DNA of 53,900 bases, the filler included, from Sphacelaria rigidula (taxonomy: Eukaryota), in the NCBI GenBank assembly GCA_964200075.2. It is 5 parts of 5 records of this genome, joined end to end, with 100 filler letters (N's around TTAATTAATTAA, not from the genome) between each part and the next. Parts side by side here need not be neighbours in the genome. Positions count along the whole stretch, not along the records: positions 32,401 to 43,100 come from CAXNAA020006063.1; 4 more parts are not named here. One strand, written 5' to 3'. Below are positions 871 through 43,347 of this stretch, piece after piece. The notes beneath the pieces were generated by a model, which saw only the letters and a program-made list of their open reading frames with translations, was not told the DNA's origin and did not search any database. Numbering within the stretch: the first letter of the stretch is position 1; each line of letters opens with the position of its first letter. A program made the translations under genes and the position numbers.

Positions 871-3800
871 ATGGATATCTACGCGGATCTACCCTCGTCT
901 AAAAGCAAAGGAGATGGAACTTCAGGGAGTTCTGGTTCCCCTGGCGTCACAGCGGGATCGAATGCTGGTAGTTCGACCACTACGCCGACCACTAAGGGAT
1001 CTTGGGCACACTCCAAGTTCCAAGGGATGATCGCCAAGCGCCGGACAGCTACTGCGGTGAGTGTGCTGGGCAGTGCCATGGTGAGGTTTCTACTTGTCGA
1101 GCGTGCGTGTGCCATGTGTTCTGCGGTTTGGGGCATAGCGTACGCTCCACTCCGTGCTGTGCCTGTCCTGTATCGTGGTGGGGATGCCGATATGTTTCAA
1201 GCTGCCGTCGGTACTGTTACTGTCTGTGCCCTGCGATTTGTGCCGTACTCTTGGGCAAACTACTCCGTTCTGCTCTGTGTGTGGTACTGTGCTGAGGGTA
1301 GAGTGGCGCAGTGCGCTTCTGGTATGCAGCGAGCTGTCCCCACTGATTGCTGCCCCGCGGGTAGTGCACGAATGGGAGGACTATGCGTGTACCGGTTAGG
1401 TAGCGTGCCGACTGTTATGTACTACAATATACTGCGCTGTAGGGTGTGACGGAATATACCACCCCCCGGGGCAATTGGGCTTTCAACTCTGTTTCTCTAA
1501 AGATGTCGCACTACATCGAGACTGGTGGTACTTTCAGCTGACCCCTGACAAATCTGTTTCCGGAGTCTCAGGCGGGCTCTCACTACATCGTTTGATTTAT
1601 ATTATACATTTATCTTGTATTTCTTCACTCTACTCCATTATTCACCTACCGAATCGTACTTCCTAGCGTTTTTCATCAGTGGCTGACTACGAAATTGTGA
1701 TGGGAAATCATCATTGTGTCATCGCAGTACAAGTATAGCATCGAAGGTGTGCTTGGAAAGCATATTTTCTGTGTCGAAACTTCTTACTTTTTTCTCGTGC
1801 AATAGGCGAAACCTCTGAACAGGCTCGTTCCGAACGCTTTGAATGAGAAAACCTGCCCCGACGACCTCGGCACCTGAGAATAATCTTGTGCCGCTTGCCG
1901 ATACGACTAACCACAACAAGGTAAAATAGTTGTGAGGAAAATAACAATCAAAATCAGCATTTTTGCCATATTTTGTACTTGTCATTGCTTCTTATCATAT
2001 TAAATACCCGCTCTGCTCTTGTGGGAGAACCCCTTTATCCTGGACGAGCCTTGGTCACACCCCTCGGAACACCTTGTTTGAATGATGAATGCTCTGATTG
2101 TTGGTCGCGCATGAACTGATCCGCCACGAATCCCAGCCTCGATCACAAGATAGACATACCCAAGTTACAGAAAAACGGTAACCATCGGCAGAAGGAACTC
2201 GAGGGAGAGGAGGGAAAATGTGAAGGAGAGAGAGAGGAAACTGCACACGGAAGTAAGAGGGGAGACTAGAAAGGACGAGGATAAGGACAAGAATGACGCT
2301 CGGCCGGGATCAAGTACCGGTCCCGAGAAAAACAAACAATCACGGCAGGCCTCTGCCGTATGCATGGCTTCGTGTAAGGAGACCCTGCATGCTCATGACA
2401 GAATACATCGAGGCTAGGAAGCGGTACACATACCAGTTACTGGCACATTGGCACATACTCTACTGGATCATTAAACGCTTTCCTTCGTTCTTCTTCACTT
2501 GTCCCCCCCCCCCCCCCCCCCCCCTCAGTATTTCTTCGGTCGTGTCGCAAAAAAGTTGGTCAAGCGTATTTCTTCTTCCTCCTCCGACCCGTCTTCTTTT
2601 AGTGGTTCAAAGTAGGCCGCCGCGCCCAGGGGGGGGTGTATGAGCCCCAGGGGGTCTAAATTAAATGGTACACCAATCGCCACTTCTGGCAAGAGTTTGC
2701 GGGTTCGGGTCCGACTCTCAACGCATGACCTATTTTTACGCAGAATCTGGCTGTAGAGCGTACGGACGGGAGTTGTAGCGAAGTAAAAGTGACGCGAGTC
2801 GACGGGGTGTGGAAGTACTGGTCTAATGCTCGATACTGTAATAGCATTGCGAGACATGTACCGGGGAAGAGATGAGCTAATTTGTCGAGACTTCGGAATC
2901 CTCAGAGGAAAAAGAGGGGTTAAAAGTATCAATGGGATAGAAAAATGTCTACATCCTTCACGACTAGTTTCGACGTCCGTGTTTCGGAAGTCGTGGAACG
3001 TGGGACAGTGATTCCGAGCGTTCCTTCATCCACTTTGTAGTGTCCAAGTAACACTGGAAACCTCGACGTCGTCTTGTCTCACGCCCTTTCAAGAATCGGC
3101 ACTACGGAAAAAAAAATCGTTTTCATCAGTCATCATCCAGAGGTCAGATTTTGGTCCTTGGGCACGAGCTCAACCCGCTGTGCTGGGAGCATTTCGTATG
3201 TTGGGCTTCTTGCTCCTGCGTCCAAAACATGGTGTACTTTATGCCTTCCTAGGGCATCAGTCAACGTGCGACAATCACTCAATCAAGCAAATAAACAAGC
3301 AAACGTAATGCTGACCTTGTCTTTCCCGCTCTCCCCCGCGATCGTCACTGTGTGCTATTTCAGGCAACATCGAGGATGGCACCGCCGCCGTTGCTGAAAC
3401 GACCTGGACCTCCGTCGGCCGCAGCTAAGGACAAAAAAGACGCTTCCAAGGAAGGTGCAAGACCAAAGCCCAAGGCTAAGCCCGGCATTCAGGCCAACAC
3501 CAAGAATGAGGTAACTCTGCAAAATAAAATACAACGAGATACTCTATACCGGTTATTCCACGATTAAGTCATTTTCCGGGGAGATGACGTTTTTTTTCCG
3601 AGGTGAACGTTTGTGATTTGATTTTGAATTATCTCCAGGGATCGATGGGCGCTTCATTCCCATGTACAAACACATGGGGGTTAGTTGGTTGTGCAACGGT
3701 TGTTGATTAGGATGGACAGAAGCTGTGACAGCATGGCGGGTGACGGCATTATTTACCCTCTTCATGGGGGGCACTAACCCCTATGTGTGTGTCACAGCAT

Positions 3801-6800
3801 GATGCGCCTTGGTGTAACTTCTTTTTCGTTTCTTTACTGCAGGATTTTTTTCCGACCGATGAAAAAATTAGCCTGGGTTCAGTGCTAAAATCCAAGTCAA
3901 GAAGCGGAAAACCCACTCATTCCCCTGCAGCAAGCGATACCCCTCATTTTCTGTATTTACACGGAGAGTCCAACGTGTTTTGCAGGGCAGTAGACCTAAA
4001 ACAATGTTCATACACGATGGTTGACAGGGATGACTGCTTGGTTCTAGACTTGAGAAAGTTCCGGAAAAAATCATGGTTCGGGGCAGGTGAGCAGTGGACG
4101 CAGCTCGTCCAAAACGTGTTTTTGTCGAAATCGGCGCCTGCGGCGTCGATTTGAGGTCTGCCAACGCACACTTTGCCTTGGGAAACTCATCACACCCTCC
4201 TTGCCCGAGGGTCTCGTGCGCCTTGGGTCGGGGTCAGGGTTTGTGTCAGTGTTAGTCTTGGTTTGTAACATTCCATGATGTTTCCCATCAAGCATTGTGT
4301 ACGAAAAATTCTCCACGCCCCCTCTTCCGGGGGGCGGATAGTTTTAGCGCAGGGGACCAGGGTGAATGTTGTTTTCACGTACCGACGACTTCAAATCCCC
4401 AAGCGCTGTTCGGTCGCTTGTACGCCACATCTCCGAGCACTCCGGTACGATTCTTTCCCAGTAAAGTCCCCAAAAGATCCGTTGTCAGCGGTTATTCAGA
4501 AGAGAAGGGTGTACGGCGTGGAAGATATCTCATGGGAAGGGCTGGTTTGCAGGTCAACATGAAGGATGACGTAATTGGGTGATTCTCGATAGAAAAATGG
4601 CCTCCAGGCTCCGCTGAACCCGTGTGTATACCGTACTTAAGGTACTCAGCGCGAAAGTGAAACGTAGGGCGGCGATATCTGCGCCCGCCAAGCCCTTCTT
4701 TGTCTCAAAGCCTTCAAACAGATGTATGTGTCTAGGCGTACATACGGTAGTAGCCCGCTCACGACAACTAAAAATTGAGCTCAGCCTGAGTTTCTTATCA
4801 GATGCACCAGGCTTACTGTATTGGAGATATTGTAGCGCTCGTCGCTCACACTCAACGCTCACGTATCTGTTGTTGTAATTTCAGCCCGATTTTTCGTTCA
4901 GTCCCCTCTCTTATGAGCGGACGGGTAGTCTACTAAGTGCTGCATGCCCAAGTTCTCCGTGAGTTTAGTGACCGCTCGCCCACCCTAGTTCCGGCGCAAG
5001 CTCTTCTACTAGGTGGCGAACTTCCGAGATAAAAGTTTTTGTCGCTCCTGCATATTAAATGAATACGAAAGTGACCATATACATGCGCAGACATTCTATT
5101 GTAGTGACTGTAGCCGTTTCATCGTCTCTCCCTCATTTTTTTTCTCTCTCGTGCTCCTCATTTTTTGCGTGTTTTGACCGTTCTTGCAATACCACCTTTT
5201 TTTTTTCTTTCTAGAGTATACGATGGTGGTGCCGCTGCAAGGTCAGTAGATATTTTATACCAGTGCAAGCAGAAAATGGTCGAGTTCACAAGAGGACGCT
5301 CAGTCTTGAAGTAGATTTAGTGTTACCTACAATTCCGGCCGGAGGGATGGGTTTTACGAGCCGATGTCCACCGCCGTGGAGTATGACCCTCCCTTGAAAA
5401 CTACCGCGTGGCAATGGGGACACCACCACCGAAGACTTCCCCGTGTTTCGCCCATCACCGTTTAACCCCTTTCGGGATCCTCTACCTCACAATCGTGTGT
5501 TGGCGGCAGGTGTCCATTTTTGTTGTTTTCAAGTCAAAATGATGCTGCAGGGGCCCTTTTGTGAATCAGCATCATTTTGACTTGAAGGCAGCACACATGG
5601 ACACATGCTGCTAACACACGTTTGTGGGGGCAAAGTGCCACATACCATTGGGGGGAGTCCGGTCCCGAAAGGGTTATTGTGCAGGATTTAGTCGCTGCAG
5701 AATTGTGGCACTAATCAATCGCCGCTTGTTATCATGTCTTTCTCCACGTTTGTTGCATGGTGTTTTTTTTCGTTGTTCTAGGCGCTAGCACCACCCCCGC
5801 CCCCGGCAAATCGCCCCAAGTCGTGGGACATGGGATTCGGAGACGTGGATGATGACTACGATCCGTTTCGGCCGAACGACTACATGGAGTACTGCAAGGA
5901 GCGTATCGACCGCAAAAAACAGGAAGAGCGGGATAGGGAACTCAAGATCATCATGGAGGAACAGGAACGAGAAGTGAGTTTGTTGGATGATTGATCTCCG
6001 GGCGGCATCGTGATGATTCGGGATATAGTTGGCGAGGGGGGTAGGGTCGTGCTCATTTGTTGCTTGCCTTAGTCGCATCGACCCTTTAAAAACCTACAGT
6101 AGCTGAAGTTGCGGGCACAAGTCTAGCCCCCAATTTTCAGGTGAGGTAGAGTGTCTTAGCCTCCCCCACCAGTTAAAAGTAGGGCAGAGATACGTGATCC
6201 AATCATGAAGTTTCGAAGGAATGTGGCGTAATTACCACGAAATTCTTGCTTACAGATGGACCAAAAATTCGACTGGTGGCATACTTATGAGGGGGAGGGG
6301 GGCGGCGGATGGCGGGTATGATCGGGCAGGCAGTTCTCTTTGGCGAAAATCGTATATAAAGTGAACAATGCAAGATGAACATGGGTTTGTAAAGGGTTCT
6401 CAATGCAAGGGTCCACGACTGCAGATATTCATGTGTTACCCTGGGTACGTCCATCTAATAACCACGGCTGTATTTTGTGGCGGATGAGTTGATTTGCGAC
6501 CCTGAACGAATTAATCAAATGATACCTCCAGGCACTGAACTACTGGAAAACATTTCGCCCGTACTGCCATGTACAGTAGCAAGCTAGCCTTCCAGTTCCA
6601 CAGGGTGCTCAGAAACACGTCATTTTCTCGCACAGGACGGACACCATACCCCCCCCCCCTCCTCCCCCGAACATGTATGTCTTCAGTATAACCGCTCTCT
6701 CCGCTTCTCTTTTCAAATCCACAACCCCAACATCCGCGCGCCCCCAAACGCGTACACCCACCCACCCACACAGCGCAAACGAGCAGACGAAGAACGAGCA

Positions 6801-25157: not shown

Positions 25158-28100
25158 TCTTATCTCCGTCCTGATTCACCGACTATGGTGAACGTTTTCT
25201 TGCTACTGTCTCATGTATCAAACGATTTCCTGCCACCCCCATTTACTTTCCGCATTTCCCTCTCCGACACGTCCCGTTCCTCCTTGTATAGTTCGTATTC
25301 TGCCACTATATGACTTCTTCTCTTTACTGCTTCGCCACAAAGCAGTTTTGTGCATCTGCTTCCTCCTCCACTCGACTACCGGTATATCTCTTTTTTCTTC
25401 CTGGCACGTCCAGGTCTCCCCACCCGAAATCACATTTTCAAATTTTCTTCGCCGCGTCCATTGGGCCATTCAGATATGTTTTCATCTCTATCCCCTCTCT
25501 CAACCTCTCGTGTATCTTCAGGTGTTATTCCCCGTCTACATTGCGTCCGATATTTCCCCCCCCCCTCATTTCCATCATGTCTCTTACTTTTGTTTTTTAC
25601 CCCGTACCTTCACGTATGGACAGTATTTCGTCTTGGCTTCCTCCTACCTCCTTCCACACTTTCTCGGGATCTCTATTCCACCTTTTTCCAGTCTGCCGTT
25701 TCGTCACTTTCTTCCATACGATCCTATCAACTGCTGCTGGCCATCTCTTTATTGGCATGTTCCTTACGCTATATTGTCATTTCACTGTTCTCACGTCTCT
25801 ATTCGTTTGAAGTGGGTACAATCTCAACTCTGCTCTCAATGCTGTTTTACTCGTGGTTTCTGAACATCCGAGTATTTTCTGAGCTGTTGTCATCTATACT
25901 GTTTCCAACTTGTTCACCAACTTCACATTCCCTTTCCATACTTTCCCTGCATACTCCAGCTTTGGTACAACCACGTTCATCAGGATACACTTTATGATCC
26001 TGGTATCTGGGTGTGATATATGTGCCCTACCCTTTTCTATTACTTTACATATGTGTGCATCCCAAGAACAGTTGTTTTAGATCTCTATGCCAGGGTATAT
26101 ACAATGGTCTACGATCGGCAGTTCGTCTTCTCCCCATTCCCATTTGTACTCTACCGGATTTTTCTCATCTTCGTTACATTCAAGTACCGCGCTTTCGTTT
26201 ACATTCGCTGTCACTCTCCATTTCCTAGTGTGTTCTGGCGCCTCCTCCATTTGCTTCTGCAATCCTTCTGATGTTTCTGATACCTACACGAAATTATCCG
26301 CGAAAATCAATCCCGATACCGTGTATTCCCACACCTTCACTCCTTACTTAGCTGCTTCTATTGCTATTTTCAGGTCATCAACAAATACCTTGAATAGAGT
26401 GGGTGATAACGTACATCCTAGTGCAACTCCTTGTAAAGTATAAAAAAACTTCGAAATTTCCCCATCTAGCATCATAGCACTGGCGCATTCTGTCGTCTTC
26501 ACCACTCTCCACACTTTTCCCCCTGATCCCACTTTCCCACAACTTTTTCTACAGCCCATTTCTCCATACTGTGCCATAGACCTTTCGAACGTCTCAAGAG
26601 AAAACGTACGTTGTCAGCTCGGCGTCTTTTTTACCTTGGACAATCTTACCTGATATTTACACATGGTCTACCTAACTTCGGCTTGGTCTAAAACCTGCTT
26701 GCCCCTCGCTGTTTTTTTTCTTCCTTTTGAAGGCATCGTTGCCACTCCATCGTTCATAAACATTACGGAATGTTTTCTGTACGGTACTCAGTAGCGTTGT
26801 CCCTCTATAATATCCTTGGCCAGCCTCATATACTTTCTTGAAAAGGTTGACTACTACTCCTTCTCTCCACCTCTTGGGTGCTTACTCGTTCTCGTAGGTC
26901 CAATCGTACAGCATAACCATCATGGTAATCATCCCCTCTCCCCCGTACTTCAGACATTCATTCATCACTTCGTCTAACCATGCCCCGTCTCGAAAGAGTT
27001 GCGTGGTCAATGGCCAAACGACTAAGGCAAGCAACAAATGAGTACGCCCCCCCCCGGCCTACTGACTTTTGTTTTTGAGATTAGCTGCACACTACTTCAC
27101 TAAATCTCTGGTGAGTTCTCTCTGCAGTTCTTTGGAGCCACTATCCTCCCGCTTTGATGCCTCTACGTTTGCCTCTGCCCACGCGTTAAGTTCAGTCTCA
27201 AATTCCGTGTCGAACCTCTTGATAGTTTTTGGTGCTCCTAGTCTACGGTTGTGCTCTACTAGTACTTATATTTTCCCCTTCGAACTACTAACCACGTTAC
27301 CGTTCTCTGCCTGTATTGTGGCGATCCCCTCGTTGATCTCTCCTGCCTAGATTCTTACATCCCTTTTCTCCCTACCCACATTTACTTCTTCCCGCAATCG
27401 AATCTTTATTCGTTTTATTCACTACATCTTCTCATATTCCTCTTTATTTCTTCTCTACCTTATTTTTTACTTCCTTTCGAGCTTTAGTATACTCCTCCAA
27501 TCATACGAGTATCACAGCAATACTCGATACTGTGTTTTTTTGCGTGTGCCTCTCTCCTTACCCTTATACCCTCTTGTACTTCCTCCTCCCACCCTTTTAC
27601 TGCTCTGCTGCATACGGTCAGTTTCTTCTCTATGACCTTACTTGCTGTGGTCTTGACTAATTGCTCCCATCCTTTTATCATCTTCGCTCCTGCCCGGTCC
27701 CTTTTCATTCCAGTGTTAACTGAACTTGCGCTTTCCAACAACTCAGAAAACTTCATCGCATTTTTGGTCGCGTCTTCTTGGAACTCTCGACTGTCTTTCT
27801 TGTATTCCTCGCTTATCTATTCTCCATTTGTACAACTTCCCATCCCGCCTACTTCTTATGGCTCTCGTTGGTTGGCTGTCTGTCCATATAAGGCAATGAT
27901 ATGTGGTTCGCACGTCTTCTGCGCATACGTTGACTTCCATTTCCTTACTAATTCGATACTCTACTACTGTATGGTCAAGAATGGAGCTTTCTGTATTTCC
28001 TCCTTTGCATTTTCTAGTCCATGTATATTGCGTCTTTCGCTTTTGTGCTCTATCGTCCAGCGTCTTTATCTCGCTATTCTCAAGGGACTTCAGCATCTTT

Positions 28101-28880: not shown

Positions 28881-30559
28881 AACAAAAAAGGAGCAAAACA
28901 TGAGAAAAAAAAACGGAATAAAATAATTGAAAAGGAAAAAGCCCGAGGGATTCAGGGCAGCACTCCTTTCGAATCATTATCCACTCTCGTTTCGTCTACT
29001 GTTATCCCTCCGTCGCTTTTACTTCCATTCTCCCTTGATCGATTCTTCTTCCCATTTTCGACTTGGTCTTTGTCCATTTGCTTCGGGCCGCTTTGTCTCT
29101 TCCAAGCACTTACCCGCTCCTCTCTCTCTATCCCTCCATTTACCCGTGCACAACGCTCACGTTTGCTGTTCCACTGACTGTGCATACTCTCCAATCCTAC
29201 CCTTCTAACCCATCCCGACGCCTTACTTGTCTCCATCCTTTCCCACTCCTTGCTCGCGCTCTGTTTCAGCGTGACTCGAATGTGTTCTCCCTCCCCTTCT
29301 GCTTTTCCTTTTGCACAGTATAGCCCTACTTCATTGTATTTTCTTGGAACTCTATTCTCGTCATGTCGCTACGGACTCCGAATAGCACTACTGCTACTTT
29401 ACCCGTCCACTCTTTACTTCTCCATCCACTCTTCCTTACCGTCTCTCTCTCGATCTCTTTCGAGACTATCTCCAGCTTGTTCGTCTCAAGTATTGTGGTG
29501 GGATGTAGTCAACGTACTGGGATATCCCAATCCTACACTTGTTGGGGGTCTGGTGCCTTTCAGTTCTTTTGCTAGCTCATCGACACTAAATAATGCCTCC
29601 TACACGGGCTCGTAGCCTGAAGCCAAGTTCAACACCCTTGACACAAGTACCCCATGTTTGTGCCAGGCGATCTTCATCGTAAACCATTCAGGCATCCCAC
29701 GATCGTATCTTCTATCTTCTTGCCCCATGGCTGTACTAGTGACGTTCCTCCAGGGAGGTCATTTTCAACGTGTAAGGTTCAAAGACGGCTTGCGTAAAGA
29801 AGGTCTCACTCACATCGGGATGTCCCGTACATCACTTTTCCCACCCCGTGTACGATTCACCGTGGATCGCTACGCCACCAATGCTTCTGAGTAGACCTTC
29901 GCTGCCGAAAGCTTGACCGACGATTCCCCCGCACTTTGTACCAGCTTCTATCCTTCGAGATTTCAACAAGTCTACGTACGGCTTGGTACTCCTTCTCGTT
30001 GGCCATGTGGTCGGTCATCGGTAAGGTGTTTGTTTCATGAGTGCAGTAGGTCTTGATGTTTACGTCATGCATTATCCACCCCTTTCCTTCATTAGACGCC
30101 TCTGCACATCATATCGGGAATTCCAGGAAAACGTATGACCAGAGTTCCACAGCCCCTGTGGAAACCGAGAAGGTTGTACGGGTATCTCACCGTGAGACAC
30201 GACCTTCATGTGAATTTGACATGTCGGGGTGACCCTATTCTATCTGTACGTGTTATATCTTTTGTATTTTCGGTTTGCATGTAAGGTGGTCAGCCTTCAC
30301 GCTATTACTCACCACACCATGGACAAAAGAATACACCGTTAAAAAGTGTACTGTGTACAGTATCAACCATTGCGCCTATTGTAGCAGGCAATAGATTCCA
30401 TACTGTACGCAGTACATTTTTTTACAATAGAATCTATCGTCCAGGGTGTGTTACTTACATGTCTGAGTTTTGGTTTTATTCATTGTGTTACCTTTGTTAT
30501 GGTATGGGGGGAAGAATCTTGGCTGTTTTCCGTTTTGATAGGGGGAAAAAGAACTGTTT

Positions 30560-31385
30560 TTCTCCCTACTCCATGTCTATGTCCAGGCTATGTTCTGGTT
30601 AATGCGAAAAACACGGTTAGCTTCGTTACTCTATTTTCGTGTCCGGGCTGTGCTCTGGTAGGTTAAAGGAAGAGATTGGTTGCCTCCGTCATTTCATGTC
30701 TATGTGCGGGCTGGTATATGTTGGGTTCAAGAAATTATTGGCTAGCTTCGTCATTTCATGTCCATGTGCGTGTTGTGTTACGTATGAAGTTAAAGAAAAA
30801 GGATGGTTAGCTTCGTCATTTCATGTCTATGTCCGGGATGTGTTATGATAGTCAATCAATCAATCAATCAAAGGTTAAAGGAAAAGGGTGGGTAGTTTTG
30901 TCATTTCCTGCCTGTTTCCAGGCTGTGTTATGGCAGATGAGAGGAAAAGGATCGATGGATTGGTCGTATCATCTCCACGTCCGGGCTGTGTTATGGTAGG
31001 CTATAAGAGAAGGGTGGCTGGCTTCGTCATTTTATGTCTATGTGCGGTCTGTGCTATGGTAGGTTGAAGAATAAGATAGGTTATCTTCGTCATTTCATGT
31101 CTATGCCTGGGCTGTGTTATGGTGGATTGAAGAAAAAGGATGGTTAGCTTCGTCATATCATGTCTATGTCCGGGCTGTGATATGATAGGTTCAAGAAAAA
31201 TGATGGTTCGCTTCGTCATTGCATATCTATATCTGGGCTGTGTTATGGCAAGTAAGAGAAAAAGGATGGCTAGCTTCGTCATTTCAGATCTATGTGCGGG
31301 CTATGTTATGGCAGGTTACAGAAAAAGGATGGCTAGCTTTGTCATTTGATATCTGTGTCCGGGCTGTGTTCTGGTAGCGAAAAAA
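30560..31385. repeat. Tandem satellite, ~59-bp unit, ~13-14 copies
   Basis: Unit GGTTAGCTTCGTCATTTCATGTCTATGTCCGGGCTGTGTTATGGTAGGTTAAAGAAAAAGGAT, interrupted by (TCAA)n at 30852-30871. Confidence 0.9.
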
Positions 31386-32001
31386 CCCGGTAACAGACAC
31401 AAAAAACAGCAGAAAAACAAGGGAAAACAAGAAGGAAAGTAGAAGAAAAAAACAGAGAGAATAAGAAAAGGAAGGAGGACGAGTAAGAAAACTAGAAAAA
31501 AACACTAGAAGAAAAAACGACCAGCTTCGTTTTATCACGTCTGTATCCTGTCTTCGTTTTACTGTAGGGAAGCGAAACTGTTCTTTTGGGTTGTTGCACG
31601 TCTGCTGTGTCTGTTGGTCCAGGGAATTCCTTTGTTTAGGTGCGGTCTCTAGTATATGTACGGTGATAGTCTGTATATTTTACCATGAACCCTATTTCCG
31701 TAGGGTATAGAAAGTACTCGGCATGGCGTTGAATCCAGCAGAAAGGGCTGACCCAGGCTTTCGGGCTGATGGTCATATTTTCCTTGATTGCATGATTAAT
31801 ATGATATGCGGATCACGATCCAATTCATCTGTGTTGATGAGATATGGCTGTGAGAGCTCAACCCTTAGACGGGGAGAGTAGGTCATCTGTAGAATCGGCT
31901 CCAATTTCACTTGAACAAGGTATGCATGGTCCAGGTGTACTACCCTCGTGGTGTGAGAGTTGAATCCGTTTTTAGGCTCGCTCAGCTCGTGTCAGCGAAA
32001 A

Positions 32002-32262: not shown

Positions 32263-33434
32263 CGCCGGCACACGTTCCAGATTTTCGTCTCAGATTTTGG
32301 NNNNNNNNNNNNNNNNNNNNNNNNNNNNNNNNNNNNNNNNNNNNTTAATTAATTAANNNNNNNNNNNNNNNNNNNNNNNNNNNNNNNNNNNNNNNNNNNN
32401 CCACGCATCCCTTTCGAGACGGAGCAGGGGCAGGGGGGGGGGGTAGCTATGCATCAAAGCAGTGGTGGAGGTCTTTGGTGATTTGGGGGAACATATCGGG
32501 CAAACTACAGCGGCAAGGAGCAGGATTCCTGAGGGCAGCAAACCTCAGTGACAGCAGGACGCCGCCGATGAAGATTTTGGGGTCAGCGGTATTTCCGATT
32601 CGGTTCCATCCAAAGGATAGAATAAGGAAGGTATGGGTTAGGGTGGTCGATGGATTGCCGTACGGGTTCATATCGGGGGCAAGTTTCTTTAGAAGGAACA
32701 AGAGCACACTGTCTTTTGAGGGTCAGTCGGGGTTTCGACCATCACCGGAGGCCCCGTGGGTGAGATTCGTGTCTAATGGCTCACCAAAACTCGGAGCCGT
32801 TAACGACGATCGCCTCACTGGACAGGGAGACTCGGCAGGGTGGGGTCTCTTCTGTGCTGTCAAGCCGAGAGCGCTCAGCGACGACCCGACGGAGGTGTTG
32901 TCGGGAGAGAGCGATCTGGCAGCATGGGATGAGGTATGGAAGAGCCTCGGAGCGGCGTGAGAGGACGACGCTACACTTCAGTGGCCTCTAAGGCTGACGG
33001 AGGACGCACGTTCGGAAGGCTTCGTTAGCGAGCTAGTCCCAGGCTACGTGCGAGATCCTCAACCGCAGGAACGCCAACTCGTGGTGATTGGACCTCGAAA
33101 GTTGTTCGATTTAGATGAGGAAGCTGAGATAGAGGTAGCTAGGGGAGTGCAGTGGTGGGATCCACAGCTACCGTTGGTATGTAAGGTGGTCAACGCGACC
33201 AAGAATGCTCGCCTAGTGAAGAAGGGTATTATAGTGGCGAAAGTTGTGGCCGTGAATGTCCGAGATCACAACCGGTTGCAGAATCTGTACGTGTCCGACT
33301 CGGGCACCACGCTCAAGTCGAAGCTGGAGGATCGAGGGACTCCGCCAGCTCCTCCCCAACCGCCGCCGGAACCGTAGGAAGGGGAGGAAAAGGACACAAC
33401 TGAAGCCACAGGAGTAGATCTCACGGAAGCGAAC

Positions 33435-34830
33435 ATGGGTCAGTTGGGTCCGGGGCAGAAGACACAGCTGTTGTTGTCTATCTTAGGAGACTTCAACGAA
33501 ACAGGACTTTTTGCGGTGGAACCCAAGAAGGTGAAAGCCGCGCGTGGGGAACCGTTACGTCTACGACTGAAAGATCCCCGGTGCAAGCCATTCGCTGCCG
33601 GTACCAGGCGGTACTCACCAGAACAGGAAACAGCTATACAAGACGAAGTTCAGAAACTCGCGGAGCGGGGGGTCATTGAGCCGTCGACGTCCGCATGGGC
33701 AGCGCTTGCGTCACGGTGCGGAAGAAGGACTGTAGTTTACGGTTGTGTCAGGATTATCGTGGGCCAAACGAACTCCTCGAGTTGTATAGCGGTGGTTTGG
33801 GGGATGTGCAGACCATGTATAGTGGCCTGGTGGGATCCAAGTACTTTACGAGTGTCGATTCAGCGAGCGGATTTTTCTAGTTGGACGTGGCGAAGGAGGA
33901 CCGACATCTCATCGCTTTTCGCGACGCGCGGGGGCACTTACGGCAATATCAGCGTTGTGGATTCGGACTCAAGGTATTAGCCGCGACATATCACCGAACA
34001 GTATCCGAAGCGTTGCTGCCAGCGCGGGGTGTCAAGAATTGGTTGGATGATATCTTGTGGCCTAGCGCGACTTTCGCCGGCCACATGGCAGGGTTGAGGG
34101 TTGTGCTCTATTGCCTGCTGAAGGCAGGCATCACTGTGAATTTCCAGAGATCACAGTGGTGCACCCAGCAACGGGACTTCGTGGGGATGACGATCGACGC
34201 GTCGGGAATACGACCTTCTCAGTCTAAGATCGAGGCGAGCGCTCAATTGTTCTTAGGGATGACCGGATATCTGCGGAGGTACACAAAAGGGTACAGCAAT
34301 ATGGCGGCACCACTCACAGACTTGCTGAGGGACCCACGATTCGCCTCCAAGCGAGCCCGGAGGATGGAGATCCCGTTGGGGGGCCAACAGCAACAGGCAT
34401 ACCTCGACTTGAAGAGCGCTCTGATGTCGTATCCGATCTTAGCGTACCCGGATTGGAATGAACAATTCGTGGTACACTCAGACGCTTCAGAGTTCGCAGC
34501 AGGGGCCGCCCTGGCCCAAGAGGCGGATGAGAGGGAGTGGATCATCGAATACGCTAGCCATAGATGGTCTCGAGCGGATGAAGAAAGATCAGCATCAGAG
34601 AGGTAAGTAGTCGCTGTTCTGTGGTCCGTAGAGCGATTCAGATCATATCTATGGGGGCGAGAGTTTACGCTAGTCACGGATTGCAGTGCGTTGGCATGGT
34701 TGTTTCGTAGTCAAAACTTGTCGCTTAAGTTCCACCGGTGGGCGCTGAGATTGATGGAGTATGATATGGTCCTCAAGTGGCGAGCTGGACGCGAACACCA
34801 GTTGCCAGATGCTCTGTCTAGGCTGCAAGG
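33435..34830 (+). pseudogene. pol: Gypsy reverse transcriptase + RNase H, disrupted
   Basis: ORF pieces 33435-33980, 33695-33880, 33881-34606 and 34691 onward carry consecutive RT/RH motifs separated by a frameshift, stops and a short deletion after KIEA. Confidence 0.9.
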
Positions 34831-35083
34831 GAGCCAGCCCAGGGGAAGTGACATTGACGTGTCATTCCCTGACAATGATAACGAAGCGGGACCAGGCGGA
34901 GGGGGAGGACCACAAGGACCCAAACTGGATGGGATGTTGCTGAAGGAACTGGAGGCTGAGTACCCGAAAGAATCCGTAGACCTGATGGCATTGGCGTTGG
35001 GGGAAGTCAGCGCGTGGTATCCACCGGAAACGGGGGAAGGAGTTATCATTGACCCCGAAGACCATATGACCGGACCGGTTAAG

Positions 35084-36062
35084 CAACGACCTCCCGCGTT
35101 GATTGTCCATTGTGGAGGCGGGGGCAACATCCTGGCCGCGGAGAAGTTTTTGAAGGTAGTAGCAGCCACCGATGTAGATTGGAAAGCGTTGGATTGTGTT
35201 AGGGTGAACCAGATTGGAAAGGGAGTCAGGTTGGTACGTACGACTCCGGGGCGCCCTTCTTTCCACAACTTGATGGAGGAGGTACAACCAGAAGTGTTGG
35301 TAGGAGATACGAGTAGGGTTACCCCCGTTGATAAAGGTGCCGGGGAGTCGGAATCCGTAGAAGGTGCCCGAGAATTGGTCGAGTCGTTTCTCTCCTCAGA
35401 GTCAGCGACAACTCTGATCTTGGAGAGTACAGGTGTAAAGGTGCATTCTCCAGGCTAGGAGAAGAGCGTGACTCCGCTACTGAGCAGAGCCGGCTGCCGC
35501 GTCGAGCAGGCATCCGTCTCCGCCGTGCACGTGGGCGCTCCGTATCGGAATAAACGAACCTATGTGGTCGCTCTGAAGGCGGATCAGCAAGGATAAAAAC
35601 CGCTGCGCGCGTGGAAACAGCGGGTGGAAGCATACGCTGTTACCTGCCCCCCGCTGGGTCAGCTATTGGGGCGGACCTACACCTATTTCTTGGAGCCGAC
35701 AGGGCAAGTCAAGGCTATTAACCGTTTCGAGGATCCGTTGCCTAGGTTAACTCGTCCTCGGCTGACGAGAGGGAAACCGCGGCGCGAGGAATTCACCCCC
35801 CACAGGGCGGATGCATGGGTATGGGGGGGGCGTACTCATTTGTTGCTTGCCTTAGTCATTTGACCATTGACCACGCACCCCTTTCGAGACGGATGCAGGG
35901 GTACGGGAGGAAGCGGTAGAGTTAGAAAGAGTCGATTTTGTGAAAGTCGCGACCACCCTCGACTATTGCGAGATCCCACCCACGGTGAACCCCGATGCGA
36001 TGTCAGATATTGTAGCTGATTTCGCTCATCCGTGGATGATGGGGGTGGTTTTATCGAGCTTG
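35084..36062 (+). pseudogene. C5 cytosine DNA methyltransferase-like domain embedded in Gypsy pol (catalytic PC absent)
   Basis: Motifs in canonical order: I ALIVHCGGGG; II VVAATDVDWKALDCVRVN; IV position PEVLVGDTSR; VI TLILEST; VIII AGCRVEQASVSAVHVGAPYRNKRTYVVA; IX/X LERVDFVKVA...DIVADFAHPWMMGVVL. Requires reading through stops at 35456 and 35594 and removing an 82-bp insertion. Confidence 0.72.
35816..35897. mobile_element. ~70-bp G-tailed short interspersed element with 8-bp TSD (CGGATGCA)
   Basis: Consensus (G)nCGTACTCATTTGTTGCTTGCCTTAGTCRTTTGACCATTGACCACGCATCCCTTTCGAGACGG. Removing it restores the pol frame. Confidence 0.85.
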
Positions 36063-38069
36063 GAAGCGGAAGGGTTGTTGAGTTTGACTCAGATTCGGAG
36101 CGAGGACGTAGGCCTAAGTGCGCTCGCAGCGATGTGGCCCCATGAGGGTGAGTCGCCAGGAACTTGGGGAGCCGCAATAACTCGCTCGTCGGTTCCCGCG
36201 GCAGAACATAAGTCGGACCAAGACTATGGTGGTGGGGAGGCTTCAGCTGAGGAGCTGATATCAGGTACAGGTAACCCTAAAACCGTTCTCGAACAGGCGA
36301 AGGCAATCTTGATGGACAACATGCAACTCGCTTTATTACAAGGACGGGACTCCCGTCTTGGACCCATCAAGGATCGGTTGAAGGGAAGGCCTAAGGACGA
36401 AGGAGTTGGTAAGAGGCGGGATGCGTACGTGCTAGATGAGAATAATCTGTTATGGTACACTTCCCCCAAGGAGCCAGCCAAATTGCCTATCCCACGCAGC
36501 TTAGTGCCAGGCCTGCTTGCGTGGGTACACACTATGCACGGGCATGCTGGGGTAATGAGGACGACTGCGGTAGTCAACGCACGGTACGAATGGCCTGGTT
36601 TTTTTGCCGATACCCGCAAATACGTGTTGTCGTGTGGATGTCGCCGGCGCAAGCGTACCAACAGTCACACCTCAGCGATGCGACCCGCACGATTCCTGCG
36701 TGCATGGGAAGTGTTAGAGATGGATATATCAGACATGAAGCAAGTTTCCGCCTCAGGTAACCGGTACTTGCTGATCATCGTGGATCGAGCAACCAAGTTT
36801 CTCTTTGCTTCTCCACTGGCTGCCAAGCTCACGGTGCCCGTCGCGAAATGTCTGTTGAAGCTTTTCTTGACGTTCGGGGTACCCTATTTTCTAAGGAGTG
36901 ACGCTGGGGGGGAGTTCACGTCGGAGGTGGTGAACCATTTATGCCGGTGGATGAAGGTGAAGCTGGATCATGGTCCGGCAGAGCACCCTCGCGGTCAAGG
37001 CGCGGTGGAAAGGTACGGTGGATGGTTGCACGACGTTTTAGCCGAGCTCTGTAAGCAATGGCCGGAAAGGTGGGATAAGTATGTAGACCCCGCTGTGTGG
37101 ATTCACCGTACTACTCTCGATCCAGCGTTGCCTAACAGCCCGACTCCATTTAAGCTGCATTTTGGGCGCGAGCCATGCACCCAAGTAGACGCGGTGTCAC
37201 CCGAGGCGGAATCTCCACCGTTGAATAACACGGTGGAACAACAACGCCAGAACTTGAAGGAGGTTCACGAGCTGCTGACCCAACGCCACAAGAAAAGGGA
37301 GGAAGTACGGTTGGCTCGAAACGCCGAGTTGGCCCGCCAGTCAGCAGGGTCACGAGCTCAGGTAGGGGATCTAGTGTTGGTGAAAGAGTCCGACAGCTCC
37401 CTCGTACACGAAAATGTGCCAGCTAAACTAGTGCACGACTTGTGGACGGGGCCATGGAAGATACAGCAAGTGGTGATACCCGGTCTCAGCCTTAAGGTCA
37501 GTATGCAAGGGCGTGAGGTACGGGAACGGACGGTCTCGGCAGCCAATGTGAAGAAACTTCATGTGCGCCCTCAACAGCTGCGGCATCCGTTTCCGGAGGA
37601 ATACTCTCAGTTAGCGTGGGGGGCTGATTTGGGGGTAGCTGAGGAGATCACGACCGTTCCGCAACTGTATACATTGACAGATAGGAAAGTGGTGTTAGGG
37701 TCAGGATCGTCCTCGAAGTGGGCCTATCGGGGGTTGTTTCATGACGGAACCGAGTCTCACTGGCTTTCAGAGGAGGAAGTTTTGGACAGTTTCACTGGGC
37801 TACAGTTGGACGTGTTTCATGCTTTGTGGGAACTATATAACCCGCAAACCAAACCGCGCCCATCCGTTAACCCATCTCGAGCGGAAAGAGACTCTTTTGC
37901 TCGGGATGAAGCTTTGCGACTCATTCCTCGAGGGACCAGAATGCGTAAACAGTATGTGGACAACCAAGGTGAGCGGCAGGAGTTCAACGGGGAAGTGTTC
38001 GACTTCCGTCAGCCGTATTACCGTATCAAGTATGAGGATGGGGATTGGGAAGAGATGACGCCGTCGTAG
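35940..38069 (+). pseudogene. Gypsy integrase with C-terminal chromo-like and Tudor-like domains (709-aa open segment of pol)
   Basis: HTMHGHAG...SCGC zinc-binding region, DDE core, GPW (GPY/F) motif. Then YTLTDRKVV...WAYRGLFHDGTESHWLSEEEV (chromo-like) and GTRMRKQY...FNGEVFDFRQPYYRIKYEDGDWEEM (Tudor-like). Confidence 0.88.
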
Positions 38070-38311
38070 GTGCGGAAAAATGCGGTGAAGGAACAGGGTA
38101 CTAGAGCCGCTTCAGGATCTAATTAATGGGGAAAAGTGATCGTTCTGCACGGTGTTTAAATTCCCTACGTGGTCTAACCCGGCAGAACGAGTATCAAGAT
38201 CGACGGCTACACCCCGACGCTGAGCACTCGGAAGAGGGACATGGTAACGCGGCGATCCATCGTGTGAATCACGTCAGTCCCAGGGTTTTCAATCCTAGGA
38301 CTGAGGGGCGG

Positions 38312-39144
38312 TGTTACTGATCGCGGCGTGATGCGGTGGAAAGGGGGACAGTACAATGATGGGCCGTTGATTCGGAACGAAGATACGCGCGCGGAGGGCT
38401 GATCGCGGGAACTGGCTAGTACCTGCGGTCAGGGGTGAGGATGTTAAGTAATCCGTCAAGATACGGAGTACATACACATGCCTCTTACATCTGGTTGAAT
38501 CCGATTCTTTCTAAGAATCGGTGCAATGCTATGTTGCCCTGGTGTTCAGAACTTCTCGAGAAGGCTCTGGCTATCAACACCACCAAGGAACGAAAGAAAA
38601 TCGAATCACCTGAAGCTGTGAACAAAGATATCCTGACGATCGACATGTACTGTACTGCGTTGGACTGTCTCCCCACGTGCTGTGAGCTTACGATTGTTAC
38701 AAGAATAGCGGTGAGACGGTTTGGAGCTTGAGTACTTAATGAACAGATGTGAAAGGATCGACCTGTAGTAAATGAATATGAACGAACTTGTGCACAAGTG
38801 GTCGGCAGTCAAATAATAAGTAGAACGAAAGGTCCCACCCGAAATAGTGAAATTTCGTACTCGTTGACCGAGGTTTTGTTATTTACCTAGTTCAGTGATC
38901 AACCTGCACTGTAGAGTTAGGCAAATGTTGACAACAACTGGAGACTGTCGTTCGTTTGTATCATGGCGCTTCTCACCGAGACTATTGTGTTCGATCATAT
39001 CATCTGTGGTGCGGCTCAAGCCAGGAGAGGTAAAAATGTTCAGGAAGATGTTCACTGAGTTTTACTATTTTCATAGTAATAAAGAGAGAAAAATATGTGC
39101 GTTTTCATCACCTCGCCATAACTTAGCAAGGGCATCACGTGACA
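38312..39144 (+). repeat. Putative 3' LTR of the Gypsy element
   Basis: Purine-rich tract AGGACTGAGGGGCGG immediately precedes TGTTAC at 38312. Ends GTGACA at 39144, an imperfect terminal inverted repeat. AATAAA near 39078. No 5' LTR is available to confirm. Confidence 0.55.
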
Positions 39145-39268
39145 AAGCAAATAATCAGCCATAATAATGCGCGCTGGGTGATGCGCGCTGGGAGCGACGC
39201 GCTTGTGCTCACGCTTACGACGACACAAAGGTAATCAAGCTACGGAGACCACAATAATGGTCCCCACC

Positions 39269-39518
39269 GACACTTTCTACGATAGTCCCCCCCAAAACCA
39301 AGCCAAAAGTGTCACAAAAAAATATGGCCATACAGCGCCTGATGCTGGGGTTCACGCCGCATGAAGCGCCTCATATTGGCGACATTGGCTAATACGAACC
39401 CAAGCGTGGGAGTTCCCAGCTGCTCGTTGTGCTCGACTTTTCCCATTTCGATCTATGTAAAGATTTTGTCTTCCAGAACCATGCACTTTTTGGGGAGGGG
39501 CTATCGTAGAAAGTGTCC
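39269..39518. mobile_element. ~250-bp MITE, same family as 23714-23965
   Basis: GACACTTTCTACGATAG ... CTATCGTAGAAAGTGTC termini and shared internal sequence. Confidence 0.8.
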
Positions 39519-40351
39519 ACCGCGCTTGGGTAAGGTGAAGAGACGCAAGCAGTCGAATCATTATAAATAATCAATGTACTCTTGACCATGACAGGTACCC
39601 CGCAAAAATAACTGCGAGATACAATGCTGCTCAGGCAAAGATTTCAATTCTGCCGCGTACGTACGGAAAGAGTGAAGTGTAATTCGTTGCCTCAAGCAAC
39701 AGCGGGCAAGAGCTATGCTTCTATCATGAAACGCGTGCAGAACTCCACGTGCCATAACATCAATTAACGGGATTATCATCCCAGGATCATAGACCGAACA
39801 ACGCACAATAGAGCAAGAGGAATGATAGCCTAAACCGGAAGCCACAAAAATTTGCACTCGCGAAAAAGATGCTTCAAGATAAGACAGCTGCTCAGGCGGG
39901 AGTTTACGTTCGTCGTGCGTACTGCTGTAATGAGCGGAGATTGTAAATACCCGCCAATGACGCGAATCAGTGGGCTCATATCCATATAAATAACAGTATG
40001 GTCTCGGGATATTGTACGTCGACTGAGACTCAACCGAAGTATGAATTGATACATGAACTGAGGCTACGAGATGAACCTCAAGACTAAGGTCCATCCCGGG
40101 GTGCTTGCACCGCTTGAAGATGCGTGTCCACAACGTTAGCGTAGCGATATCGCTCACAGCGTGACTTCGGAGGTGGCTATACGCTAGTCCTGTGCGCGAT
40201 GCCATTTGAGTTAAGTAAAACGACGTGCCGCCCACGCAGTTCGATTCGACACTCTTACAGTTCAAAGTCAGGATCTTTAGCTATGCTTGATTGAGCAGGA
40301 GGCGCGGAATTGATATCGGAAGGCATGAGTCTCTACACGTTGTATCCGTTA

Positions 40352-40778
40352 AATGCAACAGCTGCACGCACGATTTTTGACGCGTGATACAGCTGGCAGG
40401 AGCAACGTGGCGCTGTATGCACCCATTATGTTGCACACTGTGTTGTTACACGTGAACGCCGCCCCGGTTAAATGCACTATACCCCGCATAATTACCGTCC
40501 GCTAATGCGCGACACTGGCACATTGGGTCGGTGTTACATCGAATGTTGCCAGAGATAGTTGGCACCGCTCGGTGTCTCCTTTACATGCAACACAGCCACG
40601 CGCACGGTTTTTGACGCGTGATACAGCTGGCAGGAGCAACGTGGCGCTGGCTACACCCATTAGAAAAAATTGTATTGTTGTACGTGAACGCCGCACCGGT
40701 TGAATGGACTATGCATTACCGAATTGCTGTCCGCTAATGCGCGACACTGGCCCAGCGGGTCGGTGTTTCCTCGAACGT
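40352..40778. repeat. Tandem ~235-bp duplication
   Basis: TTTTTGACGCGTGATACAGCTGGCAGGAGCAACGTGGCGCTG and GTCCGCTAATGCGCGACACTGG each occur twice. Confidence 0.85.
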
Positions 40779-43347
40779 CATCAGATTTTAGTGGCTGCGA
40801 TGGGGCGAAAAACCGAAACAATCAGGGGGGTATTCACAGCAAGCAACTGCTGATGTGAGCTGTTGATTGGGAGTAATGAGCGCCGATGTGTGCGGTACAC
40901 ACCAAGCCGATGCTGCTGTTATACCCTCCCGTTTGGTTTTAGCGGGAAAACCGATATGCCGCACCTCGCTTCATGCTTTGAGTGACACGAGTGCTACTTC
41001 GAGCAAGAGCCGGATCCAGTGGTATGGATTGTTTAGACCGGTCCCAAATGAGGATGCTTGGATCTTTATGCCGCTGCACCGGTTGTCAAATCCACCCCAC
41101 CCAACAGCTGCGGTGCGCTCGGTGATAGCCGCGCGATGTAGCTTCTAGGAGCAACGTTGTGTTTTCTTTACCCACCATGTTACGGTTACGGTGAGATACC
41201 TGTGAATCTGCGATAGCGCTCGAACGAAACAGGGATCACAGGAAACAATAAAACAAAATGAGGGTATCTTCACCAGTACGGTTAAATTATCCCGAAATGA
41301 GGGGTGTTGATGTCAAATCAATCCTTTCCGCAGACTGTACTGACTGTCGCAACTACAATACAGTACAGGTGCCCAACGCACGGCACTAGCGCGACAGAGC
41401 GTTGTTCGTCTCACCGAAAAGGAAAGAGTCCACATACCCACGAAGTTTTCAACAGAAGTGCAGACAGCACTGCGTGCGACTAAGATTGGTTTCGGTAGGG
41501 ACGAGCACAACAACAGGATCACTGCTCATGCAATCCAAAACAGTGTCCGTGATTCGTGGATGTACCGCAGCAGAACAGACAGGAAAAGCTTCGACACCTG
41601 AGAGGGCTTGAAGGCTTTTGCTATGAGACAGTAGGCAAACAAGATGTTCCATGGTTTAGTCCTCCGGCTGATTGTGGAAGGGTCTTCAAATTGAAGCCAA
41701 CGCCAAGTCAACACTCCACTATAGCCGCACTTCTTTCTATTCACCTTGGGTTATCCGGATCGGTTTTGGGAAGGTTGACGCGAGATGCGAGCTTCACACG
41801 CTAATTAACTAAGCAGATTCGGGCACGGTACATCTTCGGTACGCCGACTTCTGTACACCAAGCGGTCAGACCTCTGTCAATTACCCCACACTTGCATCTG
41901 GGTAAACTGATTATGTACACAGTACCATACCCATGTTATCACACGGTAATTGAGTGACTCAGCTGTATTATAATGCACTGAAATTCGGTACCGCTGCGTC
42001 TGTATAGCTTTACGACAAATACTGTAGCGCATCCAGGCGGGCAGTTAGGTTGTGGTGACGCTACATCAGCCGTTCACCGACACCAGCCATGCTTGAAAGG
42101 CCGTACTTCAAAACCTGACATGTTGACTGTGATGCGGCTTCACAACGCCGCCGCGTACCGTTACTCGCCAGGTACATGCAGGTTCACAGTGCTACCGCGT
42201 GTCTGGTAGAAATGATGTAAAGAAGGTGGCGGTTGAAACTAACGATGCGCGGTAGATCGAAACGTTCCGTCTATCAAACCCTTAAACTTATCGCGACCTG
42301 CCTTCGCGAGTCTCTATCAAATTATGAATTACGCATGCCGACAGACTGAGCAGACACTCGTCATTAACGGAAAGTTGCGAAGTTTGAATGGACGAACACG
42401 GCACCCCCCCGGTCAGGGGGGGCAGGTCATTGAGTTGCGGGAGGTTCACTGTTATGAAAAATGGATGTACACCTTTGGATAGCTCGAGGGCTGGGCGTTG
42501 TACTAGTGTGTAGCAATTATGACAGTATCTACTAGAATGTACACACCTTTTCGATTACCCGCTCCATATTATCGAAAGGAAATAACACGATGAATCAAGG
42601 ATGATCCACCATCAGTCATCAATAGCTCAAGGAATGGCATCCATGTTCACCCTGGCTGGGGTGATCAACTCAACACTGCCACGATTGGGCAGCTACGGAG
42701 AGTGCTGCGAGACAAGATACCTGTACGAGGCCACCAGACGGACACTACACCATCTCCCGTTGTCTGTCCACTCTGCACCTATCGACAATCAAATTCCAAC
42801 GCGGTTTGTCTGTCTGTGCATGCTATGACCACCATCAGACAAGGCTGGGTTTGTCTAGGCAGGGCTTCTGGTCTTGAGGGTGTACGGGTTCCACACATTC
42901 CTTTTGCCGGTATATATCGAGAAGAAACCGACCAGGCGGTTGGCTGGTACGGAACAACGAAAGTTATAATTGCAGACATTATGCACTATGCTAGCATGGA
43001 AGCCAGACAACGTGTGAATGAATTGGGGAATGCGCGTGAGTCCGGAGTATGCGTGCGTTATACAATAGGCTCACCTACAAGCAGGCAGGAAATCACTACA
43101 NNNNNNNNNNNNNNNNNNNNNNNNNNNNNNNNNNNNNNNNNNNNTTAATTAATTAANNNNNNNNNNNNNNNNNNNNNNNNNNNNNNNNNNNNNNNNNNNN
43201 CCCCTCTTCCCCCTCCTCCCATTCTCGTATGGTTCCTTTATTAGTTTTTGTCAGTCTATGGCTTCGTAGCCGCGTCTGATCGTCTCCTGCCTGCCCATCT
43301 ATCCCTCTTCCTTCATTCCCCGCCCCCGTCATGGTCATTTCTCTCAC

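Follow-up and report, generated by a model that had tools for sequence, protein, structure and literature searches.

Within Pol of a Ty3/Gypsy retrotransposon family in the brown alga Sphacelaria rigidula, we found a domain with a predicted C5-methyltransferase fold that lacks the catalytic cysteine across the family (Cys in 0/32 readable genomic copies) and evolves under purifying selection. Its residues give good support to the view that the family has lost catalysis, and we consider it probable that the domain serves as a non-catalytic nucleic-acid-binding module acting on the element's own cDNA or RNA, nucleic-acid binding being suggested by which residues have been kept.

A methyltransferase-like domain inside Pol

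The analysed window is a stretch of 53,900 nucleotides (assembly GCA_964200075.2; genome size 244-Mb) built of 10.7-kb pieces joined end to end, and its positions 32401-43100 are contig CAXNAA020006063.1, which holds the element (Table 1). The contig begins inside the element; other copies (L072 and L073) have a long gag-like region in their upstream frames. The Pol order of Ty3/Gypsy LTR retrotransposons (RT - RNase H - integrase) is present, and in open-frame copies the methyltransferase-like domain is in frame with Pol and sits between RNase H and integrase. Named relatives of the element come from the brown algae Cladosiphon, Nemacystus and Ectocarpus sp., and the Tudor domain (PF21743) was found too in relatives P0005, P0155 and P0161. 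We also observed several repeats: the gag-like region of L072 opens with Gln/Pro-rich tandem repeats (2304-3863 of that locus), direct repeats about 232 bp apart lie within the 3' region of the element (40358-40804), and about 13 copies of a 63-bp unit, with 60-94% similarity to one another, are arrayed in tandem at 30540-31387 of the window.

Table 1. Positions of the element and its domains in the window
Feature	Position	Strand	Observations
Internal pol region of a Ty3/Gypsy retrotransposon, decayed copy	32427..38200	+	69-96% DNA identity to 15/15 fetched sister loci; Pfam RT, RNase H, integrase, Tudor
Reverse transcriptase	33606..34215	+	Catalytic Asp residues present; frameshift near 33700; stop 33978-33980
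RNase H	34385..34762	+	Pfam RT_RNaseH; stop 34604-34606
C5-cytosine-methyltransferase-like domain, ~300 aa	35087..36077	+	Motifs I-X and target-recognition region
Motif I glycine loop	35108..35125	+	Phe column His in 26/27 copies; glycines kept
Motif II acidic residues	35171..35179	+	First Asp in 31/31 copies
Motif IV, one residue shorter than canonical	35294..35320	+	Pro column Thr in 29/32 copies
Motif VI	35423..35431	+	Glu kept in 27/31 copies; Asn column Ser in 26/31
Motif VIII	35540..35557	+	Gln column Tyr in 31/32 copies; first Arg column Lys in 29/33
~70-bp high-copy interspersed repeat, inserted in the methyltransferase-like domain	about 35823..35893		Flanked by ~16-bp duplication
Motif X region	36009..36041	+	Canonical Gly-Asn lost; following helix predicted
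Integrase	36489..36989	+	H2C2 zinc finger and rve core; Pfam
C-terminal Tudor domain	37944..38060	+	PF21743, E 8e-6, just under curated cut-off
Likely part of 3' long terminal repeat	41855..43100	+	Similar to the DNA that precedes gag in L072 and L073; boundaries approximate

The window copy itself is dead, with premature stops at 35456-35458 and 35594-35596 (plus strand) in the methyltransferase-like domain; RT and RNase H are broken as well. Nothing can thus be concluded on the family from this single copy. The ~70-bp repeat inserted in its domain ends on one side in a G-tract, is accompanied by a target duplication of ~16 bp, and recurs in the window at 6031, 24798, 32093, 32182, 45843 and 45937, as well as inverted at 26985-27054. 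It is extremely abundant, since its summed contig depth is ~2.5 million compared to ~1000 for the element (two runs).

A Pfam search of the window copy gave no match to PF00145, and sequence searches of the PDB with the methyltransferase-like domain returned 0 matches. The ESM Atlas, queried twice, listed PF00145 in 30/30 matches (scores 0.90 and 0.94). A profile search gathered 148 relatives of the domain at E ≤ 0.001, and 10 of 82 aligned family members matched PF00145 (best E 5e-5). Aligning the family against 11 canonical enzymes with hhalign gave a probability of 83.6 (E 8e-6) over 134 columns covering motifs II-VIII, in a register with a gap of one residue, where Thr/Ala of the family align with the Pro and Ser/Cys with the catalytic Cys. 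We then considered a structure model of a natural open-frame sister copy, L004 (140 sequences in the alignment; pLDDT 89, pTM 0.86). Searched with Foldseek against the PDB, the model matched C5-methyltransferases in all the rows shown (best E 5e-11, TM about 0.6), and the best viral structural match was a phage cytosine methyltransferase at TM 0.81 over 311 columns, followed by matches at 0.60-0.65; identity in the top structural alignments was 10-15%. Homology of the domain to C5-methyltransferases thus exceeds chance, and the domain is predicted to have the two-domain C5-methyltransferase fold with motifs I-X in order. The phage enzyme fits the model better than DNMT2 or DNMT3, in a comparison made without a library of cellular predicted structures, and the model suggests that the donor was a prokaryote- or virus-type enzyme; sequence searches for the donor found none.

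Motif residues in genomic copies and distant relatives

Searching the S. rigidula genome gave 114 matches, and 34 contigs were read (30 loci returned and 4 more). A sequence-only reading of the window copy had given motif IV as VLVGDTSRV, ENV as EST, PQxRxR as PYRNKR and FxGxGG as HCGGGG, and all four match the translation; the range of 35280..35580 that it assigned takes in motifs IV, VI and VIII but leaves motif I outside. At the motif IV Cys column, 25 of the 32 readable copies have Ser and none has Cys. The catalytic signatures of PF00145 (Pro-Cys, ENV and QxRxR) are absent from the family's domain, with Asn, Gln and first Arg replaced. The Asn of ENV has been lost together with the Pro of PCQ, the residue to which it is hydrogen-bonded in Dnmt3a (PMC4802922, in extract). 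The last motif VIII Arg is kept in 32/33 copies, and the Asn of PYRNKR proved private to the window copy (1/33), in a column that is Lys in 29/33.

The sequence-only reading had also proposed that loss was concentrated on the catalytic residues of the methyltransferase. The Pro-Cys pair is gone, as proposed, but so are the Phe of motif I and the Gly-Asn of motif X, and two residues of the catalytic pocket, the Glu of motif VI and the last Arg of motif VIII, have been retained. Among the SAM-binding motifs, the motif I glycines and the motif II Asp are kept; with the Phe and the Gly-Asn gone, SAM binding is less well supported. The neighbouring enzymes were correctly described as intact at their catalytic residues, both in the window copy and in most other copies: the RT Asp-Asp was present in 20/21 and 19/21, the RNase H Asp in 22/22, and the integrase D,D,E in 23/25, 23/24 and 21/22.

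Among distant relatives, Pro-Cys was absent from all 153 aligned segments of the 148 relatives, 59 of them covering motif IV. The Cys column of those 59 holds Cys in 27 and Ser in 17; the motif VI Glu is present in 51/64 and the last motif VIII Arg in 51/70. On a tree of 57 rows and 161 columns, the Cys column itself among them, Cys is widespread, is absent from at least three well-supported clades including that of the window family, and is kept in 8/11 rows of one clade. The proposal of a pseudo-enzyme is supported for the copies of the window family; with Cys in 27/59 relatives, the wider family need not be dead. No column reaches 70% conservation in the relatives' catalytic loop, from the motif IV Arg to the next helix, and many of their conserved columns are Gly, Trp, Leu or Pro. 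A separate observation concerns the residue after the Cys column (35315-35317), which is Arg in 32/32 copies and 46/56 relatives, in place of the Gln of canonical enzymes; this Arg is a candidate for a new binding residue.

Selection on the domain and competing explanations

Substitutions were split into those shared by at least two copies, which reflect lineages while they were active, and private ones, which are mostly post-insertion decay; dN/dS excludes seven contigs with internal deletions or poor alignment, as well as any copy covered to less than 70%. For the 14 copies in which all six regions are present, dN/dS on shared substitutions was 0.31 [0.24-0.40] for the domain, and not near 1, compared to 0.07 for RT, 0.10 for RNase H, 0.13 for integrase, and 0.24 and 0.35 for the two linkers flanking the domain; private dN/dS was 0.53-0.84. 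The domain value stayed at 0.29-0.38 with all copies per region and a kappa of 1 or 4. Within the domain (25 copies), dN/dS was 0.23 [0.15-0.35] for motifs I-III, 0.34 for motifs V-VIII, 0.31 for the target-recognition region, 0.17 [0.10-0.28] for columns conserved in distant relatives, and 0.94 [0.53-2.21] for the catalytic loop, a wide interval from 20 codons. The domain is constrained and its catalytic loop is unconstrained, as expected of a pseudo-enzyme. That the domain is no more constrained than its flanking linkers counts against a strong functional claim.

The history that we favour would begin with an ancestral element capturing an active, probably prokaryote- or virus-type enzyme. 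The active-site Phe, Pro, Asn, Gln and first Arg would then have been lost in all lineages seen, and the Cys later, separately in several of them. What has been retained (the motif I glycines, the motif II Asp, the motif VI Glu, the last motif VIII Arg and the target-recognition region) would make up the pocket for the cofactor, one half of that for cytosine and the surface turned towards DNA, and since these are conserved the domain would grip nucleic acid. It may do so in the particle or the pre-integration complex and might also have SAM bound; it would be an accessory beside the Tudor reader that aids transposition and is not essential to it. In Dnmt3a both motif VIII Arg residues matter for catalysis and the first also for base flipping (PMC4802922, in extract). 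Base flipping by the domain is doubtful, because that first Arg is Lys in the family and the catalytic loop drifts. A role in evading 5mC silencing is unlikely, because the hosts are reported to be without DNMTs other than DNMT2 (available text of PMC13076208). A bolder version is one that we entertain only tentatively: an old stramenopile Gypsy lineage would have captured a methyltransferase of phage or bacterial type and made of it a dedicated, non-catalytic cytosine/DNA reader that, with the Tudor domain, guards or steers cDNA in hosts that have given up DNA methylation, the Cys-bearing lineages representing an intermediate stage.

Some lineages do without the domain. In seven of 24 Pol relatives (P0151, P0153, P0154, P0155, P0158, P0159 and P0161) a single chain runs from RNase H on to integrase or Tudor without any match to the domain profile, and their linker starts in the same way as that of carriers. 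Together with six hand-labelled rows they form one clade (99/99; the seven alone have a support of 83), and one of them represents a 291-member cluster. Carriers fall in three deep clades, and the tree test did not separate gain from loss (p-AU 0.57). The domain is dispensable, as a sister clade thrives without it. In a further group of sequences, L027-L030 and many similar genome matches, motif I is missing and RT and RNase H are apparently mostly deleted, with the rest of the domain and the integrase kept; this internally deleted group is possibly a non-autonomous subfamily.

The success of the domain-less sister clade is what one would expect if the domain were a dead enzyme without a job, kept since a well-folded block between RNase H and integrase interferes less with Pol processing than a misfolded block would, and lasting until it is cleanly deleted. 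The dN/dS of the domain, which resembles that of the linkers and exceeds that of RT, RNase H and integrase, fits such a folded passenger too, and so do the many conserved columns of Gly, Trp, Leu or Pro. Yet the domain is full-length across many lineages less than 50% identical (148 relatives), and polar pocket residues are among the best kept, namely, in the copies, the Asp of motif II (31/31), the Arg that follows the Cys column (32/32) and the last Arg of motif VIII (32/33), and, in the relatives, the Glu of motif VI (51/64). On balance we regard the passenger explanation as unlikely.

We found no CpG depletion or CpG-biased mutation in the element copies. CpG observed/expected was 0.96 for the element, the remainder of the window gave 0.92, and private C-to-T changes per 1000 were 13.9 at CpG, 14.7 at CpT, 12.9 at CpC and 10.1 at CpA. 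Were cDNA methylated only once, little of this would show at CpG. In the host genome, PF00145 matched only two DNMT2-like pieces, a lower bound, and this fits the reported loss of DNA methyltransferases other than DNMT2 in brown algae (PMC13076208, in the part available), to which DNMT1 in Discosporangium is an exception (bioRxiv 2024.02.19.579948, in extract).

The absent CpG signature bears on a further explanation, in which the Cys lineages would methylate cytosine in cDNA or RNA through the shortened motif IV and the Ser lineages would be weakly active or recently dead. The hhalign register, which sets the family Cys/Ser on the catalytic Cys column, speaks for such an atypical active enzyme, as do the Cys in 27/59 relatives, which is clustered by clade, and the kept motif VI Glu and last motif VIII Arg. 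There are precedents as well: Pmt1, whose motif IV departs from the consensus, still methylates tRNA (PMC3526270, in extract), and a Cys-to-Ser E. coli enzyme is partly active according to the title of a reference in the accessible portion of PMC4802922. Against these stand the simultaneous change of at least five active-site residues, among them the first motif VIII Arg, without which Dnmt3a is almost inactive (same extract), the repeated loss of the Cys in lineages that went on spreading, and the drifting catalytic loop, and we rate this explanation slightly below the passenger.

Simple decay, with a normal methyltransferase encoded by the family and the window copy alone rotted, can point to the two stops, the insertion and one private change in that copy, but is highly improbable and is refuted for the copies and relatives examined by the missing Cys (0/32), the missing Pro-Cys (0/148) and the shared dN/dS of 0.31. 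Neither of the two outcomes that the sequence-only reading named as refuting its proposal, intact PCQ/ENV/QxRxR in the consensus or a dN/dS near 1, was thus observed.

Comparison with known systems

C5-methyltransferases carried by retrotransposons have been described in dinoflagellates and a charophyte (PMC5890265 and, restating it, PMC12344493, both in extract): KnitGypsy-Dnmt3, SymbioDIRS-Dnmt3 and SymbioLINE-Dnmt occur in Symbiodinium and Klebsormidium. In the same extract of PMC5890265, KnitGypsy-Dnmt3 keeps the key residues, SymbioDIRS-Dnmt3 methylates CG, the hosts are methylated, and SymbioLINE-Dnmt gave no DNA methylation in yeast, for which the authors suggest an RNA role. As in these elements, the C5-methyltransferase domain of the Sphacelaria element lies in an element ORF (Pol for KnitGypsy-Dnmt3) and is under purifying selection. 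Unlike them, it lacks Pro-Cys, its dN/dS is 0.31 compared to theirs of <0.2, its modelled structure appears closest to a phage enzyme (TM 0.81, compared to about 0.6 for DNMT3), and its brown algal hosts are reported without DNMTs except DNMT2. The Sphacelaria family would be another independent retrotransposon capture of a C5-methyltransferase, in a new host group and kept without the catalytic motif, and it separates the catalytic from the non-catalytic value of such captures, a question left open in the available text of PMC5890265.

A Tudor-tailed Gypsy lineage including Gypsy-10_Ec32 has been described in Ectocarpus and Tribonema (PMC12477816, in extract), and our element is likened to it by that description, as its Pol ends in a Tudor domain. 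The accessible text and five supplements of PMC12477816 do not mention a cytosine methyltransferase domain, nor does the accessible part of bioRxiv 2021.11.30.470311 mention a methyltransferase-like domain. Ectocarpus sp. proteins share a 100/100 clade with the Sphacelaria element; unlike it, the Ectocarpus sp. relative P0158, which reads through to integrase, is without the domain. Literature searches, with most subscription papers outside their reach, turned up neither the domain itself, nor a case in brown algae, nor a retrotransposon DNMT with degenerate catalytic residues. The result is a multi-copy, multi-species retrotransposon lineage with a domain that derives from a C5-methyltransferase and has diverged beyond the reach of Pfam or BLAST screens, and its natural Cys-type, Ser-type and domain-less sister lineages offer a ready comparison in which the domain-less clade is a natural control. 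Should the Cys-bearing lineages be active, most brown algae may have no other DNA C5-methyltransferase activity left.

The domain resembles prokaryotic and phage C5-DNA methyltransferases (PF00145; M.HhaI, M.HaeIII and Dcm) in predicted fold, motif order, motif VI Glu and last motif VIII Arg, and differs from them in that the family is without PCQ, ENV and QxRxR and the domain is fused into Pol. Derived from PF00145 and without its catalytic residues, it would work like a pseudo-DNMT. DNMT3L and plant DRM3 are host pseudo-DNMTs, which have the methyltransferase fold without catalysis and assist an active partner. Unlike for DNMT3L, an active DNMT partner was not found in the genome, where the two DNMT2-like matches are a lower bound. 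Like DNMT3L and DRM3, the domain is predicted to have kept the methyltransferase fold without catalysis; unlike them, its carrier is a transposon, and if the reader interpretation is true, it would be the first retrotransposon-borne pseudo-DNMT.
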